Origin: an uncultured Chloroflexia bacterium
GTDB lineage: Bacteria; Chloroflexota; Limnocylindria; Limnocylindrales; CSP1-4
Reading direction: 5' to 3'
Length of the DNA: 64,000 nt
Assembly (NCBI GenBank): GCA_963749705.1
Contig: CAVVNQ010000006.1
Span: forward strand, 128,001 to 192,000
Each line of letters begins with the position of its first letter. Position 1 is the stretch's first letter. The notes under the pieces were generated by a model, which was not told the DNA's origin, made no database searches, and saw only the letters and a program-made list of their open reading frames with translations. This document shows, piece by piece, positions 18,959 to 47,308 of this stretch. The translations under genes and the position numbers were made by a program.

Positions 18959-19905
18959 CGGATGTCTCCTCCGGCCGCCGCGGCGACCGTCTCGGGGGCC
19001 AGCGCCGCGGCGGCGAGATCGGCCAGCCCGGCGATGAATGTGGGGTCGGTGTTCATCGAGCGCGCCCGTTCGAGCCGGATGCCCGCCTCGCGGGCGACCG
19101 CCTGCGCCTCGATATCGATGTCGTAGAGCACCTCGAGGTGGTCGGCGACGAACCCGACCGGCCGGATCACGAGGTCGGTGACACCTTCGGCGGCCAGGCG
19201 CCGGATCTCGTCGAGGATGTCCGGCCCAAGCCACGGCTCGCCCGTCCGGCCGGCGCTCTGGAACGCGAAGTCGTAGCGCTCGAGGCCAAGCCGTTCCGCC
19301 ACCAGCCGGGCCGTACCCGCGAGCTCGTCGGGGTAGGGGTCGCCGTCGGCGAGGACGCGGGCGGGCAGGCTGTGCGCGGTGAACATGACCCGTACGGCGG
19401 ACGGGTCGTCGAACCGATCCAGCGCCTCGCGCGTGGTGCGCGCCATCGCCTCGATGAACCGCGGCTGGTCGTACCAGGAATCGACGTAGACGACCGCCGG
19501 AGCGCCATCGCCGAGCGAGGCCAGCGCCGCGTCGACCGCCCGGCGATACCCGGCGGCGTTGGACGACCTCTGGGGCGCCAGGGCGATGGCGACGAGGCGC
19601 TCGACACCGTCCGCCGCCATCCGCGCGACCACGTCGCCGATCCGGGGCTCGATGTGGCGCATCCCCGCGTACACCGGCATGGGCCGACCGCGCGCCGCCA
19701 GGTCCGCCTCGACCGCCGCTCGCTGCGCCTCGACGATCCGCGACAGCGGCGAACCGCCCCCGATGGCCCGGTAGCGGCCCAGGAGCTCCTCGAGCAGGTG
19801 CGGCGGCGGCGGGCTGCCGCGCCGGATGTCGGTGTAGTAGGCCTCCACCTGGTCGAGCCGGTCGGGGCTGCCATAGGCCATCAGCAGGACGGCGTCGTGG
19901 GTCAT
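18955..19905 (-). CDS. hemH: coproporphyrin ferrochelatase (CpfC)
   Basis: LLMAYGSP, YYTDIRRG, FTAHSLP, QSAGRT.EPWLGP, GFVADHLEVLYDID. Confidence 0.95.
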   Translation of the reverse strand: MTHDAVLLMAYGSPDRLDQVEAYYTDIRRGSPPPPHLLEELLGRYRAIGGGSPLSRIVEAQRAAVEADLAARGRPMPVYAGMRHIEPRIGDVVARMAADGVERLVAIALAPQRSSNAAGYRRAVDAALASLGDGAPAVVYVDSWYDQPRFIEAMARTTREALDRFDDPSAVRVMFTAHSLPARVLADGDPYPDELAGTARLVAERLGLERYDFAFQSAGRTGEPWLGPDILDEIRRLAAEGVTDLVIRPVGFVADHLEVLYDIDIEAQAVAREAGIRLERARSMNTDPTFIAGLADLAAAALAPETVAAAAGGDIR

Positions 19906-29639: not shown

Positions 29640-30953
29640 CTACCGGGTCACCGGCGCGTGCGTCGTCGCCAGCTGTTCGATCAGGTCCGCGGCGCGGGAT
29701 GTCCCGGCGGCCGCCCGCATCCGGGCGGCAATCCCCGCCATTCGATCTCGCAGCGCCGCATCGCCCAGCAGCTCGTCGATCGCCCCGGTCAGCTCCTCGT
29801 CCCGGAATCCGTACGTCGACAGCCGTCGCCCGAACCCGGTCTCGTCGACCCGCTGCGCGTTGTCGACCTGATCCCAGAACAACGGCAGCACGACCATCGG
29901 CTTGCCATGGTGGAAGCATTCGACCACGGTGTTGTTGCCACCGTGCGTGATCACGAGGTCGACCTGCGGCAGGATCGCGGGCTGGGGCAGGAAGGACTCG
30001 CCGGTCATGTTCTCGTGGAGCCGGATCTGGTCGGCCAGCGGACCCTTTGACACCACGACCCGATGCGGCGTCCGGCCCAGGACGTCGACCAGCCGCTGCA
30101 TCAGCTCCACGTCCGCCGAGCCGAGCGACCCGAGCGACAGGTAGATCAGCGCGCCGGGCCGCTCCGCGAGGTGCGCGGGCAGCGTCCAATCGCCGTCCGT
30201 CGCCCGGACCGTCGAGTCCAGCTGGTGCCACGTGGGAGCGAGCGGATTGACCCGTCGGTAGTCCGCCTCGGCCGGGTACGAGTACATGTTGAGGTACGGC
30301 GACTCGTGCATGAAGTCGGGGCCGAGCTCTCCGCTCGCCAGGCCGCCGGCGCCATGATCCCGGCAGAACGCGTCGAAGTCGGACCACAGCGGCTGGTGGG
30401 CGCGACCGTACTCGGCGAGGAACCCGGCCCAGCGCCGCGGATCGGCGGCCGGGTACCCGGACGAGAACGGCGCGATCAGCGGGTCCTTCACCTCGGCCGG
30501 GTTGCAGGACACGATCCGGACCCACGGCCGGCCGCTGGCCATCACGGCCGGGAACGAGACGACGTTGTCCTCCACGATCGCGTCCGGCGCGAGCTCGCCG
30601 ATGATCTCCTCGAGCCGCGGGTTGACGTACTTCGCCCCGTCGATCAGCGCCTGCCAGGTGGGCTGGATGAACTCGCTGATCTGCTCCAGGGTCGACTTGC
30701 GGAACACCGGGGCCGTGTCGCGGATGAAGTCGATCCAGAACTGGCCGGGAACCTCCGGCTCGGCGGGCGGCGGCCCGAGCCGCATGAGCCGCTCCTCGAA
30801 GCCCTTCGCCTCGAGATTGCCGGCGAACGACTCCTCGACGATGAACACGACCCGATGGCCGCGCGCACGCAGCACGCTCCCGATGCCGACGCAGTTGTTC
30901 GTCGGCCCGTAGGCTCCCTCGGGAAAGAACACGATCGTCCGGCCGTCTGCCAC
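29640..30953 (-). CDS. UDP-glycosyltransferase (MGT/GT1-like)
   Basis: GAYGPTNN, IYLSLGS, FLPQ..ILP..D..ITHGGNNT..E...GKPM..LPLFWDQ.DNA. Confidence 0.9.
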   Translation of the reverse strand: MADGRTIVFFPEGAYGPTNNCVGIGSVLRARGHRVVFIVEESFAGNLEAKGFEERLMRLGPPPAEPEVPGQFWIDFIRDTAPVFRKSTLEQISEFIQPTWQALIDGAKYVNPRLEEIIGELAPDAIVEDNVVSFPAVMASGRPWVRIVSCNPAEVKDPLIAPFSSGYPAADPRRWAGFLAEYGRAHQPLWSDFDAFCRDHGAGGLASGELGPDFMHESPYLNMYSYPAEADYRRVNPLAPTWHQLDSTVRATDGDWTLPAHLAERPGALIYLSLGSLGSADVELMQRLVDVLGRTPHRVVVSKGPLADQIRLHENMTGESFLPQPAILPQVDLVITHGGNNTVVECFHHGKPMVVLPLFWDQVDNAQRVDETGFGRRLSTYGFRDEELTGAIDELLGDAALRDRMAGIAARMRAAAGTSRAADLIEQLATTHAPVTR

Positions 30954-35439: not shown

Positions 35440-35509
35440 GGTCGCGTCGATACCTCCTGGCACGAGATCGCCGCCCCCGGGGACCGGGGACGGCGTCGAC
35501 GCGAGCGGG

Positions 35510-35600
35510 CCTGCTTCCTACACCGGTACGAACCGGATCAGGTTCCGCGGGTCTGTGGCGAAGCCACACTCTCAGCGCGCTGGGCGCTCCCCGGAGGCGA
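35510..35600 (-). ncRNA. TPP riboswitch
   Basis: Minus strand GGGGAGCGCC..GCTGAGAG..GACCC..AACCTGATCCGG..TACCGGTGTAGGAAG matches the THI-box consensus. Confidence 0.92.
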
Positions 35601-35621
35601 ATGTTCAGTTGTCGCCGCAGT

Positions 35622-41144: not shown

Positions 41145-41696
41145 GTGAAGCTCAGCAAGACCCTCGTGCTCCCCGTTGCAGCGCTGCTCGTCGTGAGCGC
41201 CGCCGGCGCGGTGTTCGCAACGACCGGCTCCCCCGCCCCGGCCGGGACCGACAACGTCATCCCGGCCGCAGACGCCACGCCGACGCCGGCCGCCTCGACC
41301 GCACCCGCGCCGGTCGCCAAGGACTCGCTCCTGTCGGACGTGCTCGACGGCCTGGTCACCAAGGGCACCATCACGGCCGGCCAGAAGACCGCGATCCTCG
41401 ATGCGCTGGCGACGGAGCGAACCGCCCGCCGGACGCTGCGGCAGCAGGAACGCCAGCAGCTCAAGGATTTCCTGTCCGATGGCGTCATCACGCAGGATGA
41501 GCTCGCCCAGCTGCCCGCTGACAGCCCGATCCGGAAGCTCACCGGGATCCTCGACGACGGCAAGATCACGGTCGACGAGCTTCGTGGCCTCCGGCGTGGA
41601 CTGCTCGGCGGCCGTGGCCCCGGCCGCCTTGGCGGAGGTGGGCTGTTCGGCGGCCCCAGGGCAACCCCCGCACCGAGCACGGGCACCAGCGGCTGA
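41145..41696 (+). CDS. secreted helical protein of unknown function
   Basis: GGAGG RBS, signal peptide ending AVFA, repeated G.IT motifs (LVTKGTIT, LSDGVIT, LDDGKIT). Confidence 0.75.
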   Translation: MKLSKTLVLPVAALLVVSAAGAVFATTGSPAPAGTDNVIPAADATPTPAASTAPAPVAKDSLLSDVLDGLVTKGTITAGQKTAILDALATERTARRTLRQQERQQLKDFLSDGVITQDELAQLPADSPIRKLTGILDDGKITVDELRGLRRGLLGGRGPGRLGGGGLFGGPRATPAPSTGTSG

Positions 41697-41837
41697 GCCG
41701 CTCCCGGCACTCGCGATCCTCATGGCCCGCCGGCAACGGCGGGCCATGCTCTTGCCTCCGCGACGGGGTGTCGCATCACGCGCCATCGCCGCGGTGGGTC
41801 CTCGCGGTGTCCCGGCCAGCCACGACGACGCAGGCGG

Positions 41838-41999
41838 CGTGGCCCGTGGCGCCACGAAGTCGCCGTCGGTGCGCCCGGACTAAGCGTTTGGCCGGGCTTC
41901 GTGGCTCGTGGCGCCACGAAGTCGCCGTTGGTGCTCCCGAATCAGCCCGGATCGAACGGTTTGGCCGGCCTTCGTGGCCCGTGGCGCCACAGAGTCGCC
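41838..41999. repeat. three degenerate copies of a palindrome-containing REP-like unit
   Basis: CGTGGC(C/T)CGTGGCGCCAC(GAA/AGA)GTCGCC at 41838, 41900 and 41973. Confidence 0.85.
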
Positions 42000-42205
42000 C
42001 TTCGGACCCTGCCCGAGCTCGACCGGGGCGGATTCGGGGCCTCGCAGCCAACGGTCTCTGCTGCGCCGCGCAGGCCGCCGCCCCGCGCCGGCCGCCGACC
42101 CGCGCCGACGGGCAACGCCCCCGAGCAGCCTTCCGTTGCGTTTCGGTTGCGACGGCGCCCGGGGGTTGACGCGACCCCACCCGTTGCCCCATCCTCCGGG
42201 GCCTG

Positions 42206-42292
42206 ATGAGTCACACCACCGTCTCCTGGTCGATGTGTATGCGTGGGCGGCCCCGCCGTGCGGAGGATGGGCGCCGAGCAATCCCGCGCTGA
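42206..42292 (+). CDS. putative 28-aa leader peptide MSHTTVSWSMCMRGRPRRAEDGRRAIPR
   Basis: Follows a TTGACG..CATCCT promoter-like pair; contains ATG-TGT-ATG; precedes a terminator and metY. Confidence 0.55.
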   Translation: MSHTTVSWSMCMRGRPRRAEDGRRAIPR

Positions 42293-42332
42293 ACGTCAGC
42301 GAGTGACAGCGGGATCTCGGAGCTGAGGTCCC

Positions 42333-42370
42333 GGGGCCGCGAACCGATGGGTTCGTGGCTCTTTTGTTTC
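42333..42370 (+). terminator. intrinsic terminator (attenuator) in the metY leader
   Basis: GGGGCCGCGAACC-gatg-GGTTCGTGGCTC-TTTTGTTTC. Confidence 0.85.
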
Positions 42371-42460
42371 TCCGGCATACACGACGGGTAGCCGCCGAGC
42401 TCGACCCTTCTGGGGCCCTCGACGCAATCCACACCCGCCGACCAACCGGAGAGACCCGCA

Positions 42461-43799
<1,339 letters not shown>

Positions 43800-43804
43800 G
43801 CGCC

Positions 43805-44944
43805 ATGGCGCCAACCGGCACGCAGTCCCCGGGGCGTACGCGCGCTCCGGGGACCTCGCCCTCGTCGCGGGGACCGGCCTCGCCCCCGCTGGGGACGGGG
43901 CGCATCCAGACCGTCGAACTAGGGGTAGGGGCTTTGGACCTCGACGCGGGCGGCCACCTGCCGTCGGTCACCCTCGCCTACCGCCACGACGGGCCGGGGC
44001 CGGATGCCCCACAGGTCCTCGTGATCCACGCGCTCACCGGCTCCGCCGACGCGGCCGGTGACTGGTGGGCGCCGCTCATCGGGGCGGGGCGCGCGTTCGA
44101 CACCACCAAGGTCGGCGTCCTGTGCGCCAACCTGCTCGGCGGTCGCTACGGCTCCACCGGGCCCACCTCGATCGATCCCGCGACCGGAGCGCCATGGGGC
44201 GCCTCCTTTCCGGTCGTCTCGGCTCGCGACGAGGCCCGCGTGCTGTGGGCGCTCGCCGACGAGCTCGACATCGAGCGGTTCGCCCTCGTCACCGGCGGTT
44301 CGCTGGGCGGGATGATCGCGCTCGAGGTCGCACTGGCGCGGCCGGACCGGGTCGGTCACGTGGTGCCCATCGCGGCGCCCGCGGCAACGACCGGGCTCGC
44401 GCTTGCCTGGAACCACATCCAGGTCGGGCTGGTGGACCGCTTCGGCGTCGAGGGCCTGAGCTTCGCGCGCCAGCTGGCGATGACGACCTATCGCTCGGAG
44501 GCCGATTTCGACCTCAGGTTCGCGCGACAGCAGGAGGAGGACGGCCGGTTCTCGATCGCGTCCTACCTCGACCACCAGGGCGCCAGGCTTGTCGACCGGT
44601 TCGATCCCGACACCTATCGCACCCTGGTCCGGATCATGGACGGGCACGACATCGGCCGCGGTCGGGGCGGAGCCGTGGCAGCGCTGCGGGCGCTGGCCGG
44701 CGCCGGGACGCTGCTGACCGGGCTCGCCGTCGGCGGCGACATCCTGTATGGACCGGACCAGGTCCGGGCGCTGGTCGCCGATGCCACGGCGGCCGGCGTC
44801 GATGCCCGGTATCTCGAGCTCAACTCCACGAAGGGGCACGACGCGTTCCTGGTCGAGTGGGAGCAGCTGACCAGCGTGCTGTCGGCTGCGCTCGCCCTCG
44901 GGCCTGCCCGCACCGGACCGCTCGGCGTCACCGGCGCGGCCTGA
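43805..44944 (+). CDS. metX: homoserine O-acetyltransferase
   Basis: HALTG, GWW-like DWW, GGSLGGM, ARQLAM.TYRS, SYL.HQG, GHDAFL. Confidence 0.9.
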   Translation: MAPTGTQSPGRTRAPGTSPSSRGPASPPLGTGRIQTVELGVGALDLDAGGHLPSVTLAYRHDGPGPDAPQVLVIHALTGSADAAGDWWAPLIGAGRAFDTTKVGVLCANLLGGRYGSTGPTSIDPATGAPWGASFPVVSARDEARVLWALADELDIERFALVTGGSLGGMIALEVALARPDRVGHVVPIAAPAATTGLALAWNHIQVGLVDRFGVEGLSFARQLAMTTYRSEADFDLRFARQQEEDGRFSIASYLDHQGARLVDRFDPDTYRTLVRIMDGHDIGRGRGGAVAALRALAGAGTLLTGLAVGGDILYGPDQVRALVADATAAGVDARYLELNSTKGHDAFLVEWEQLTSVLSAALALGPARTGPLGVTGAA

Positions 44945-45025: not shown

Positions 45026-45100
45026 TGGCGCGTGGCCTAACGGTATGGCACCTGACTCTGGATCAGGGGGTTCCAGGTTCGAATCCTGGCGCGCCAGCCA
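45026..45100 (+). tRNA. tRNA-Gln(CTG)
   Basis: Acceptor TGGCGCG/CGCGCCA, anticodon arm CCTGA-CTCTGGA-TCAGG, T-loop GGTTCGAATCC, encoded CCA; -10 TAGAAT upstream. Confidence 0.96.
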
Positions 45101-45102
45101 AC

Positions 45103-45150
45103 ACACAACCTGTGGTGCAGCCAACGTGGCTTGACCACCAGATGTTGTGG
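45103..45150 (+). promoter_or_regulatory. tandem 16-bp NrdR-box-like sites that are inverted repeats of each other
   Basis: ACACAACCTGTGGTGC (45103) and CCACCAGATGTTGTGG (45135), 32 bp start to start. Confidence 0.55.
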
Positions 45151-45190
45151 TTTCGACCCTCCTCGGACGCCACGCCGAGGAGGCCGCTCG

Positions 45191-46177
45191 ATGGCTAGTA
45201 CGCCTGACTCCTACCCCGTTCGTTCGCCTGATTCACGTAGGAATCGGCGCGCTTCGCTTGATTCTGTTGCCCCTGATCACTTCTCAGGCGGCGATCCGCT
45301 CGCCGTTGGGCTCGGCACCGCGGTCGATCTGTTCCTCGCGGCAAAGGCCGCCGAGGGCGCGTCGCCGAACACGGTCGAGTGGTACCGGATGATCACCGGC
45401 CGCGCCGTGCGCCGGCTCGGCCCCGGCCGGCCGCTCGACGGCGTCGGGGCGCCCGAGCTGCGCGCCTGGCTGCTCGAGCTGCGCGCGACGCTCTCCCCCG
45501 AGTCGATCGCCGGCTACGTCCGCGGCCTCAAGGCGTTCGGCAACTGGTGCGCGGCCGAGGAGCTGGGCGAGGCCGCCGGCTTCCGGGCGCTCCGGCGGCC
45601 GCGCGTCCCGCGCCGGCTCATCGCCCCCTTCACCGACGCCGAGCTGCAGCGGATGCTCGCCCTCGCCGAGCCCCGCGAGCGCGCCATCGTCCTGCTCCTG
45701 CTCGACACCGGGCTGCGGCTCGCCGAGGCGCAGCAGCTCCGGGTCGGCGACCTGCGGCCCGACGGGACGGTCCGGGTCATGGGCAAGGGCTCGAGGGAGC
45801 GGATCGTGCCCGTCGGCGCCACCGCCCGCCGGGCGGTCGTACGCTACGTCGCGGGGCGCGGCGCCGCCCGCCCGGGCGACGCGCTCTTCGTCGGCGCGCG
45901 CGGGGGGCCGATCCAGAGGCGCACCCTCCAGAGGGCGATCGCGGATCTCGGGCGGCGCGCCGGGGTCGGCACCCGCTGCAGCCCCCACACCTTCCGCCAC
46001 ACGTTCGCCCGCAGCTTCCTCGTCAACGGCGGCGACGTCTTCAGCCTGCAGCAGATCCTGGGCCACACCACGCTCGACATGGTCCGCCGCTACGTCAGCC
46101 TGACTGAGGCCGATCTCGTCGCGAGGCACCGGGCCGCGTCGCCGGCCGACCGGCTGGCGCGGGGCCGCACGGCGTGA
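45191..46177 (+). CDS. tyrosine recombinase/integrase 1
   Basis: DTGLRLAE, VMGKG.RER.VP, SPHTFRHTFA, ILGH, RRY: all catalytic residues present. Confidence 0.93.
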   Translation: MASTPDSYPVRSPDSRRNRRASLDSVAPDHFSGGDPLAVGLGTAVDLFLAAKAAEGASPNTVEWYRMITGRAVRRLGPGRPLDGVGAPELRAWLLELRATLSPESIAGYVRGLKAFGNWCAAEELGEAAGFRALRRPRVPRRLIAPFTDAELQRMLALAEPRERAIVLLLLDTGLRLAEAQQLRVGDLRPDGTVRVMGKGSRERIVPVGATARRAVVRYVAGRGAARPGDALFVGARGGPIQRRTLQRAIADLGRRAGVGTRCSPHTFRHTFARSFLVNGGDVFSLQQILGHTTLDMVRRYVSLTEADLVARHRAASPADRLARGRTA

Positions 46178-46256
46178 CGGCCGAGGGTGCGCGGGGCGCA
46201 GCGCGGCGATGGTCCGGCGTCAGGCGAGCCGGCATCGGAACCCGTGCGCCGCCGCT

Positions 46257-47204
46257 TCAGAGGCGGTCGACAGGCGAGACCCGCCGGTGCACGGCGCGGA
46301 GGTCGTCGTCGAGCAGCCGGACATAGCGGCGCGTCACCTGCAGCGAGGCCGGGCTGTGGCCGAGGATGCGCTGGAGCGAGAAGACGTCGCCCCCGTTGGT
46401 CAGGAACGCCCGCGCGAAGCTGTGGCGGAGGACGTGCGGCGAGCAGCGCCCGGAAAAGCCGGACGCACGGCCGAGGCGCCGGACGAGCAGCTGGACGGCC
46501 CGCGGCGTCAGGCGGGCCCCTCGACGCCCGACGAACAGCGGATCGTCTGCAGAGAGTGGCCCGCGGGCAACGAGCGACATCCGGACGGCGCGCCGCGCCC
46601 GGCCGCCGAGCGGGACCACCCGCTCCCTCGACCCCTTGCCCATGACGCGGCAGCGCCCTTCAATGAGGTCGACGTCCCCGACCGAGAGGGACACGAGCTC
46701 GCCCAGCCGGATGCCCGTGTCGAGCAGCAGGAGCACGATCGCCCGGTCGCGGACCACGGCCTCGGAGCCGCCGTCGACCGCGGCCAGCAGCGCCCGCATC
46801 TGCGCGGCGGTGAGACTCGGGACCAGGACGTCCGGAACCCTGGGCGGCGAGAGCCCCGCGAGGGGGTCCGCGCCCAGCCCGAGCTCCCGCTGCAGCCAGT
46901 GGCCGAACGCGCGCAGCGTGCGGACGCGTCCGGCGACCGAGTTCGGCGCCAGGGGCCGGAGCCTCGCGGCCTGGGCCGCGAGCAGCCAGCGTCGAGCGGT
47001 CACGGGCGACAGGTGGCGCAGGGCTGCTGCCTCGCCGTCACGCGCCGCGAACCCTGCGAAGTCGTCGAGGTACGCGCGGTACCAGTCGATCGTGCGGCGG
47101 CTGCGGCCCGCGACTTCGAGCGCGGCCGTGTACTCCTCGATGAGTTCGCGCAGCGGGAGGTCACCGAGACCCGCGAACGACGGCGCCGCGGCCACCGGCG
47201 CCAT
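46257..47204 (-). CDS. tyrosine recombinase/integrase 2 (paralog of 1, convergent)
   Basis: DTGIRLGE, VMGKGSRERVVP, SPHVLRHSFA, ILGH, TRRY. Confidence 0.93.
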   Translation of the reverse strand: MAPVAAAPSFAGLGDLPLRELIEEYTAALEVAGRSRRTIDWYRAYLDDFAGFAARDGEAAALRHLSPVTARRWLLAAQAARLRPLAPNSVAGRVRTLRAFGHWLQRELGLGADPLAGLSPPRVPDVLVPSLTAAQMRALLAAVDGGSEAVVRDRAIVLLLLDTGIRLGELVSLSVGDVDLIEGRCRVMGKGSRERVVPLGGRARRAVRMSLVARGPLSADDPLFVGRRGARLTPRAVQLLVRRLGRASGFSGRCSPHVLRHSFARAFLTNGGDVFSLQRILGHSPASLQVTRRYVRLLDDDLRAVHRRVSPVDRL

Positions 47205-47308
47205 CACTCCGCGCCCCGCGCGAGTGGGGCGGCGCGATGCCGTCGACCTGCCCAGATGGGTGCCCGAGTCCTTCCTGCTGGCGCTTCGTAGGTCATGGAC
47301 CATGACAA

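Follow-up and report, generated by a model that had tools for sequence, protein, structure and literature searches.

Introduction

Methionine genes are textbook cases of control by S-adenosylmethionine (SAM) riboswitches, T-boxes and repressors such as MetJ, and attenuation by leader peptides is known for Trp, His, Leu, Thr, Phe and Ile/Val and, more recently, for Cys. In this work we analysed a candidate leader-peptide attenuator located ahead of the metY-metX genes in a 64,000-nucleotide stretch of DNA from an uncultured Chloroflexia bacterium (Limnocylindria, CSP1-4; GenBank assembly GCA_963749705.1, contig CAVVNQ010000006.1, positions 128,001 to 192,000, forward strand), hereafter the window. 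A first-pass annotation of the window had proposed that ribosome stalling on Met/Cys starvation would favour an antiterminator in this leader.

Among the closest described systems, leader peptides with Cys codons near the stop codon have been predicted at cys and cbs operons of Actinobacteria; the excerpts of that work (Seliverstov et al., 2005; PMC1262725) report no conserved terminator hairpin at these leaders and no RNA element ahead of methionine operons. In mycobacteria, several loci with polycysteine short open reading frames (sORFs) are placed under one logic, named a 'ribulon'; according to excerpts of the preprint, these sORFs carry consecutive Cys codons at their 3' end, open a duplex that hides the Shine-Dalgarno sequence and have no terminator (Canestrari et al., bioRxiv 10.1101/834739). 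For Proteobacteria, excerpts of the survey by Leyn et al. (2014; PMC4239095) name MetJ, MetR, SahR and SAM/S-adenosylhomocysteine riboswitches and give beta-proteobacterial metY as having no known regulator, while the 5' untranslated region (UTR) of a Xanthomonas met gene is described, again in excerpt, as resembling SAM-I (PMC6230763). The excerpts of Naville and Gautheret (2010; PMC2965389) and Korolev et al. (2016; PMC4833913) contain no mention of a Met leader, and no description of a methionine-codon leader peptide was found in the full-text literature searched, the coverage of which leaves out most subscription journals.

Our comparison of the window with related genomes indicates that this leader likely controls metY-metX as a ribosome-mediated transcription attenuator, with charged Met-tRNA, and probably Cys-tRNA as well, as the signal.

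Methods

Related loci were fetched with the MetY protein, taking one genome per species, and the best 80 of at least 593 confirmed matches were used. The 11 met leaders discussed below are that of the window and those of its ten closest relatives; together with two copies found before dapB they make up the 13 leaders. Because these sequences fall into about five clades, counts over the 13 leaders are not independent. ATG columns were read from a 10-sequence met-leader alignment and antiterminator pair counts from a 13-sequence alignment (A2). As controls for the helices, one strand was slid along the other, and 500 shuffles were used for the covariation scores. All support for the attenuator reading is computational.

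Results

Organization of the metY-metX leader

The leader and the two genes that follow it present these features, all on the forward (+) strand:

42166..42171, + strand: -35-like hexamer TTGACG, assigned by sequence position; the box is kept in relatives
42190..42195, + strand: -10-like hexamer CATCCT, 10 nt ahead of the sORF start; matching hexamers occur in relatives
42206..42292, + strand: leader sORF of 28 codons plus TGA (42290-42292); an ORF in the frame of the conserved block is found in 13/13 leaders
42233..42241, + strand: regulatory codons ATG TGT ATG (Met-Cys-Met); both ATGs are invariant columns in the 10-sequence alignment
42247..42255, + strand: A1, the antiterminator 5' strand GCGGCCCCG, which pairs with 42332-42340
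42274..42320, + strand: M hairpin, with the sORF stop in its 5' arm; the hairpin folds in 13/13 leaders
42332..42370, + strand: intrinsic terminator, from the terminator scan and covariation
42461..43799, + strand: metY, O-acetylhomoserine sulfhydrylase / cysteine synthase family (Cys_Met_Meta_PP, E = 1.9e-136; TIGR01326, 644 bits against a cut-off of 495)
43805..44944, + strand: metX-like homoserine O-acyltransferase (TIGR01392 MetX, 272 bits, below the 500-bit cut-off; Pfam Abhydrolase_1)

The promoter, the 28-codon ORF, its Met-Cys-Met (M-C-M) codons, the complementarity downstream of them, the stop-spanning hairpin and the U-tailed terminator were all recovered where the first-pass annotation had placed them. 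The peptide read from ATG 42206 is MSHTTVSWSMCMRGRPRRAEDGRRAIPR. A1 begins 14 nt past the first regulatory codon, and its segment GCGGCCCC (42247-42254) is perfectly complementary to GGGGCCGC (42333-42340). The arms of the M hairpin are CCGAG (42274-78) and ATCCCGC (42281-87) on one side and GCGGGAT (42309-15) and CTCGG (42316-20) on the other, with the stop codon between the arms. The terminator 5' arm (42332-42345) holds CGGGGCCGC, which is also the partner of A1; it is followed by the loop GATG, a 3' arm that extends to 42362 and the U-tract TTTTGTTTC (42362-42370), 91 nt ahead of the metY ATG at 42461. A terminator scan drew the stem with 13 pairs (42333-42362) and the T-rich tail TTTGTTTCTC, and returned 2 terminator-like sites in 1.5 kb against 0.4 expected. 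The 181-nt leader folded with -90.1 kcal/mol (z = -2.54), a stability equalled by 2 of 200 shuffles. The consensus promoter scan made no call at TTGACG..CATCCT, because CATCCT agrees with TATAAT at only 3/6 positions; conservation of the promoter in relatives nevertheless supports it.

The absence of a SAM-I, SAM-IV or T-box element, also noted in the first-pass annotation, held in the Rfam searches. At gathering score there was no SAM, T-box or other match over 42166-42460, and the models for SAM-I, I/IV, II, III, IV, V, VI, SAM-SAH and T-box gave no match to the leader. At E ≤ 10, the region 41700-42600 returned only sub-threshold chance matches, mainly to a hairpin at 41721-41748, and no family was assigned to the leader; two of these weak matches, on the minus strand, overlap its terminator and spacer part. 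The ten related Limnocylindria loci, scanned whole, gave zero Rfam matches.

The sORF and its sulfur codons are conserved in Limnocylindria

Among the best 80 of at least 593 matches, the ten metY loci nearest to the window share 76-80% MetY identity and come from metagenome-assembled genomes (MAGs) titled Chloroflexota, Chloroflexia or Candidatus Limnocylindria, which assigns the window to this lineage and not to the Actinobacteria. All ten carry the attenuator element, directly ahead of metY in nine cases; the L035 leader, found by profile search, precedes an OsmC-like gene inserted ahead of metY, and its regulatory codons (ATG TGT ATG) are identical to those of the window. As it is conserved in relatives, the arrangement is more than chance.

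The alignment of related metY leaders proposed by the first-pass annotation showed that the ORF and its in-frame Met/Cys codons are kept in all ten closest relatives. Across the 13 leaders the sORF has 22-41 codons, always in the frame of the conserved block. The N-terminal parts vary in sequence and length (e.g. MSHTTVSWS, MTTTLSWP, VNTILVTAN and MNANAFSRRENSRQASSLRGS), and relatives differ in length by whole triplets, for instance by a 15-nt insertion in L038. The Met/Cys codons are in frame in 11/11 met leaders, in three patterns: M-C-M in 7/11, M-M-[AS]-M in 3/11 and MHCAMCPCMGM in 1/11, written as ATG TGT ATG, as ATG ATG GCC/TCC ATG and as ATG CAC TGC GCC ATG TGT CCG TGT ATG GGC ATG. The sulfur codons are thus conserved at the level of codons and not of nucleotides. 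A count of stop codons in the three frames was uninformative, since the frame-0 ORF is set by its own stop and the +1 stops derive from the ATGA/GTGA at the start.

In 11 of the 13 leaders, the dapB copies included, a -35 box (TTGACG, TTGCGC, TTGCGT or TTGACA) lies 37-40 nt before the sORF start; the exceptions are L030 (35 nt) and L037 (27 nt), so that the distance is 35-40 nt in 9/10 relatives. At the place matching CATCCT, the relatives carry the -10-like hexamers CATAAT, CATACT, TATGCT, CACAAT or CAACAT, and across the leaders the sORF starts about 8-11 nt past this hexamer. The usual spacing between promoter and transcription start would put the 5' UTR at 0-4 nt. No Shine-Dalgarno sequence was found ahead of the sORF in the leaders examined. 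With its transcription start placed in this way, the sORF would be leaderless or have a 5' UTR of a few nt.

A paralogous leader with Lys codons precedes dapB

Two paralogous leaders were found about 3 kb downstream of the met leader, at L001:6097-6265 and L038:6047-6213, both ahead of a gene for dihydrodipicolinate reductase (dapB; DapB_C, E = 2e-25). They were weaker matches in the profile search and were confirmed by the covariance model R1 at 91 and 84 bits. Their leader peptides are MFIQTHAWPKSKRWRPCREARP (L001) and MFVRMLAKPKSKRWRPCREARP (L038), and at the position of M-C-M they read AAG TCG AAG (K-S-K) and AAG CCG AAA TCG AAG (KPKSK), respectively. The promoter-to-start spacing, the block CGC TGG CGG CCC, the stop-holding hairpin and the U-tailed terminator are shared with the met leaders, and Rfam showed no lysine riboswitch in the L001 and L038 loci.

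Ribosome sensing predicts that one scaffold would carry Lys codons at a lysine-pathway gene and Met codons at a methionine gene, and we regard the Lys-codon dapB paralog as the strongest support, from comparative evidence, for this interpretation. It is in line with the first-pass proposal that stalling would favour the antiterminator. The Ser in the middle of the dapB codon block implies that the middle position need not be regulatory. The paralogs suggest a modular attenuator family in Limnocylindria; searches with nhmmer (the 80 loci and the window) and with R1 (25 sources) revealed no other-codon paralogs beyond the two dapB copies. Two R1 matches elsewhere in the window (19028-19118 and 30289-30358, minus strand) were weak and lie within coding sequence, and were discarded as noise.

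The antiterminator, the M hairpin and the terminator are conserved

The block GGCGGCCC is unchanged in 13/13 leaders, at synonymous positions too, which indicates a constraint at the RNA level. The invariant GGCGGCCCC is present in all ten relatives and is complementary to the terminator 5' arm. For the nine antiterminator pairs (42247-42255 with 42332-42340), 97.4% of the cells were paired in the 13 sequences, compared with 42-55% in the slid controls. Six of these pairs are fixed. Another occurs as GC ten times and as GU three times, and a further one, CG in the 11 met leaders, is replaced by UA in both dapB leaders, with the two partners altered together. In the terminator stem, 92.9% of the cells were paired, 5 pairs changed on both sides and none of the 500 shuffles attained its covariation score.

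The first-pass annotation had a long hairpin bring A1 and the terminator arm together, and this structure was retained: the stretch from A1 to the terminator is the least conserved in sequence, yet the long M hairpin forms in 13/13 leaders, with the sORF stop codon within its 5' arm in every one. Its z-scores range from -1.0 to -3.8, and in 11/13 leaders at most 3 of 200 shuffles were equally stable. A rough matrix of similarities among the M segments was discarded, as it carries no meaning.

In folding models of a transcript ending ahead of the terminator 3' arm, the antiterminator is stacked on M in 13/13 leaders. With the complete attenuator, the antiterminator is the minimum-free-energy state in 7/13 leaders and lies within 3.4 kcal/mol in the other 6; in the window, its state has -61.2 versus -64.1. 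Masking A1 yielded the terminator in 13/13 leaders, and masking a 30-nt ribosome footprint at the stop codon yielded it in 9/13. No conserved upstream partner of A1, either an anti-antiterminator or a region 1:2 pause hairpin, was found in the folding models.

Proposed mechanism

In the model that we propose, transcription would begin at the sORF start or a few nt ahead of it, and a ribosome would load on the nascent 5' end and trail the polymerase. With ample Met- and Cys-tRNA, the ribosome would cross A1 and halt at the stop codon within M; M would then be melted, leaving A1 and the terminator arm about 75 nt apart, so that the terminator would form and transcription would end at about 42370. 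Under Met (or Cys) shortage, the A site of a stalled ribosome would hold the first regulatory codon. For a footprint of the usual size, we infer that the front edge of this ribosome would then stand just short of A1; M would fold, A1 would capture the terminator 5' arm as this emerges and, with no terminator formed, the polymerase would proceed into metY-metX.

An untranslated leader would also read through, because no upstream partner for A1 was found. Such a default would suit methionine, since initiation itself needs Met-tRNA. The Cys codon may be a second input, because the enzyme family includes bifunctional homocysteine/cysteine synthases.

A long-range helix spans the terminator and is followed by a C-rich spacer

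Three further features extend from A1 to the metY start:

42246..42267, + strand: P1 5' strand (GGCGG, CCCG, CGTG, CGGAGGA), which overlaps A1, from the RNAalifold consensus
42368..42396, + strand: A', the P1 3' strand (TTC-TCCG, CACG, CGGG, CCGCC), past the terminator, from the RNAalifold consensus
42399..42445, + strand: C-rich, G-poor spacer, from composition, followed by the metY ribosome-binding site GGAGAG (42448-42453)

RNAalifold on the met leaders predicted P1 as a 21-pair helix, with M and the terminator as arms of a three-way junction. In P1, 89.8% of the cells were paired against 35-55% in the slid controls, 4 pairs changed on both sides, and L032 has an additional hairpin inserted into an internal loop of the helix. 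Following read-through, A' would replace the terminator arm as the partner of A1 and the next 12 nt, giving the three-way junction.

This junction could instead, or in addition, be read as the aptamer of an undescribed ligand-binding riboswitch, e.g. for SAM, closed by P1 and with an incidental ORF. Its conservation, with both-side changes in 4 of the 21 pairs of the closing helix, would fit such a reading, as would the fact that several relatives have this junction as the minimum-free-energy fold of their full 5' UTR and that SAM-I occupies the same place before metY in other Chloroflexota and other phyla. We nevertheless consider it quite improbable. The 3' strand of P1 lies past the U-tract, and P1 therefore cannot influence the terminator; L034 and both dapB paralogs, which have no P1, retain the sORF, A1, M and the terminator; and a metabolite aptamer cannot explain Lys codons on the same scaffold before a lysine-pathway gene, nor conservation of Met at the codon rather than the nucleotide level. 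The leader also received no Rfam family at E ≤ 10. A' is missing from L034 and from both dapB leaders, and L034 has also lost CGTG CGGAGGA while retaining A1. This absence, together with the position of the 3' strand, makes P1 an accessory of read-through transcripts only, where it may act in stability, processing, translation or Rho-dependent events.

The spacer of the window has C 0.47 and G 0.21, compared with 0.36 and 0.35 window-wide. The same skew was observed in eight relatives (overall C 0.39-0.50, G 0.21-0.31), and the spacer of the relatives carries the motif CCCCAGGG..CCCGGGA. In composition the spacer is reminiscent of a Rho loading site. The minimum-free-energy folds of the window and L029 pair A' with the metY Shine-Dalgarno region. 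A role of A' as an anti-Shine-Dalgarno for metY was rejected, since RNAduplex gave pairings no better than those of shuffled sequences in the two sequences used (38/200 for the window, 24/200 for L029).

These features bear on a second alternative, in which stalling on the sORF is real and acts on metY translation, or through Rho at the C-rich spacer, with the U-tract hairpin being constitutive or serving stability. Mycobacterial leaderless polycysteine sORFs do act on translation by freeing the ribosome-binding site, as excerpts of their description state (bioRxiv 10.1101/834739). Both P1 and the C-rich, G-poor spacer are conserved downstream of the terminator, and in the window and L029 the metY Shine-Dalgarno region has a complement in the stretch UUUCUCCGG. 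On the other hand, the initiation pairing with A' did not exceed that of shuffles in these two sequences, the terminator is strong, U-tailed and covarying with the conserved A1 partner as its 5' arm, and in L034 and the dapB paralogs the terminator is all that lies between the sORF and the gene. Control of translation or by Rho is thus an unlikely account, if the less improbable of these two, and we retain transcription attenuation as the preferred one.

The window copy and its neighbourhood

The metY gene of the window is frameshifted at 42515-42525, where one extra base near 42520 in a G/C run moves the homology into the +1 frame; either an assembly error or a genuine pseudogene could account for this. 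The N-termini of metY are intact in relatives (shown for four). The window sORF is 5-6 codons longer than those of the M-C-M-type relatives (22-23 codons).

Upstream of the leader, a gene ends at 41696 and is followed, at 41721-41748, by a perfect GC-rich hairpin (GGCCCGCCG..CGGCGGGCC) without a T-tract, probably the terminator-like structure of that gene. Just upstream of the met promoter there are three direct 45-nt repeats, each with the palindrome GTGGCGCCAC (41833-41877, 41895-41939 and 41968-42012). Their core pattern gave 3 matches against 0.04 expected and none elsewhere in the window; Tandem Repeats Finder missed the three repeats, which were revealed by a separate repeat search.

A frameshifted metY and a leader that has lost the conserved stop of its relatives could indicate a decaying locus without regulation, in which the promoter stands next to an ORF that arose by chance and to a terminator that is left over or belongs to the upstream gene, and at 70.6% G+C long open frames are common. 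This possibility is close to negligible in our view: the element, the invariant Met codons and A1 are kept in 10/10 relatives, whose metY N-termini are intact in the four shown; the upstream gene has its own hairpin at 41721-41748, with the met promoter placed between that gene and the terminator; and one surplus base in a G/C run, potentially an assembly error, accounts for the frameshift.

Directly after metX there is a tRNA-Gln gene (45026-45100), followed by two tyrosine-recombinase genes (Phage_integrase; 45131-46177, + strand, and 46257-47303, - strand) and an AAA_16 ATPase-like gene. The region 45026-47303 is likely an element integrated at tRNA-Gln. Elsewhere in the window, a thiamine pyrophosphate (TPP) riboswitch was detected at 35497-35603 on the minus strand (59.8 bits, gathering score 54.3).

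Met/Cys-rich sORFs and SAM-I riboswitches before metY in other phyla

In the 78 loci whose sequence reached far enough, the 460 nt ahead of metY were searched for sORFs with at least 4 Met/Cys residues, including at least 2 Met, within 7 residues. Such sORFs were found in 17/78 loci, compared with 2/75 in the downstream control. A looser criterion (3 Met/Cys in 7 residues) gave 33/78 in sense and 15/78 in antisense and also catches the ends of upstream genes; we report the strict criterion because the loose one is too permissive.

All but one of the 17 loci (16/17) lie outside Limnocylindria. Ten are from Acidobacteriaceae/Terriglobales, with the peptide ..MAMCMCM.., two from Gammaproteobacteria (CMAMCMCM and EMCMCMC) and one from Thermoanaerobaculia, in addition to one each from Bacteroidota (MRCMGMMMCMMM), 'Eisenbacteria' (MRMTMCMTMAMCMC) and Ignavibacteriaceae. 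In a crude scan, most of these sORFs had a terminator after the ORF and a TTGACA box with a -10 hexamer (often TGATACT) ending about 7-12 nt before the ATG. In L039, L041, L044, L050, L055, L056, L060, L063, L073, L079, L009, L017, L072, L078 and L080, which represent four other phyla, the sORFs lie about 100-400 nt upstream of metY, and Rfam had no family matching them. The R1 model matched the metY leader of L056 (Terracidiphilus, Acidobacteriota; L056:2683-2811) over its full length with 21.9 bits and a rough E of ~1.6e-5, which may reflect distant homology or convergence.

A SAM-I riboswitch was present upstream on the metY strand in 15/80 loci, which include other Chloroflexota and other phyla and none from Limnocylindria. 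Of the 17 loci with a Met/Cys-rich ORF, only L007 also has a SAM-I riboswitch, suggesting that ribosome sensing and SAM sensing are alternatives at metY. We count both the Met/Cys-rich sORFs, which look like independent analogues of the Limnocylindria leader, and the SAM-I riboswitches at the corresponding position in favour of the attenuator reading. In this Ignavibacteriaceae MAG (L007:2482-2824), an ORF with ..CCMMMCM.. and a terminator (2570-2600) are followed by SAM-I (2653-2780) with its own terminator, possibly a tandem of both ways of sensing.

Tentatively, and with rather less than even confidence, we put forward a broader picture: in at least five phyla (Chloroflexota, Acidobacteriota, Pseudomonadota, Bacteroidota and 'Eisenbacteria'), the place of SAM riboswitches ahead of metY may be taken by a widespread, undescribed class of Met/Cys sORFs with promoter-adjacent starts and terminators, with the Limnocylindria scaffold being modular, recoded from Met to Lys before dapB, and with P1 adding a second control step after the termination decision.

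Discussion

Several observations weigh against reading the leader as a Met-sensing attenuator. The transcription start, sORF translation and the end of transcripts at 42370 are predictions. The antiterminator is nearly invariant, and its sole compensatory change comes from two paralogs and may be one shared event; in the shuffle control, which is weak, 120 of 500 shuffles reach as many two-sided changes as observed. When the folding models place a ribosome at the stop codon, 4/13 leaders still favour the antiterminator thermodynamically. The last ATG is 5 nt before A1, and a ribosome stalled there would mask some of A1 and promote termination; the model thus requires the first codon as the main stall site, as a stall at the last ATG gives the wrong direction. 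The simple model leaves helix P1, the spacer motif of the relatives and the C-rich spacer unaccounted for. The window copy also deviates from its relatives: metY is frameshifted, the conserved stop (TCTGA, in GGGGTCTGA) is changed so that the ORF ends 15 nt later, and only in the window can a local hairpin sequester A1, by pairing it with 42271-42277. Finally, the regulatory codons number only three; E. coli trpL likewise has few, with two Trp codons. Rare codons are described, in excerpts of PMC1183508, as sensitive regulatory codons, a property that we count in favour of attenuation.

Because Met-tRNA serves both initiation and elongation, a Met-sensing leader would be conceptually special, in that missing initiation and stalling would both switch the operon on. 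Whether the codons set the specificity can be tested on a natural example, the Lys-codon paralog, and a scaffold this compact could be reprogrammed. The Met/Cys-rich sORFs of Acidobacteriota and other little-studied soil phyla suggest that, outside model organisms, ribosome-based sensing is commoner than RNA-family libraries show.

Compared with the classical attenuators (trp, his, leu, thr, pheA and ilv of Proteobacteria, trp of Actinobacteria), the window leader shares an ORF with end-product codons and a terminator before the first gene, as well as an antiterminator that overlaps the terminator 5' arm and an outcome set by ribosome position, as these are described in excerpts of PMC1183508 and PMC1262725. 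It differs from them in its amino-acid specificity, with Met and Cys as the predicted signals, and in a leaderless-type start, in which a start codon without a Shine-Dalgarno sequence abuts the promoter. Unlike in those systems, no region 1:2 or anti-antiterminator was found, and the default would be read-through; the antiterminator is long-range, its strands joined by a stop-containing hairpin, and a further long-range helix spans the terminator.

SAM-I (S-box, RF00162) occupies the same place in the metY 5' UTR, also with a terminator, and presumably has the same physiological output. The window leader has no sequence or structure match to it, and its signal would be aminoacyl-tRNA read by the ribosome rather than SAM bound by the RNA. 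The predicted actinobacterial Cys leaders resemble it in having sulfur-amino-acid codons close to the stop codon; they differ in that the window has an explicit terminator and antiterminator. With the mycobacterial polycysteine sORFs, in the excerpts that describe them, the window shares an sORF, here putatively leaderless, as first cistron of a sulfur-amino-acid operon and the proposed sensing of charged tRNA by ribosome pausing, and the reuse of the Limnocylindria scaffold with other codons before dapB is reminiscent of the shared logic of the ribulon. Unlike the mycobacterial sORFs, that of the window has a single Cys codon between two Met codons and is followed by a covarying intrinsic terminator.

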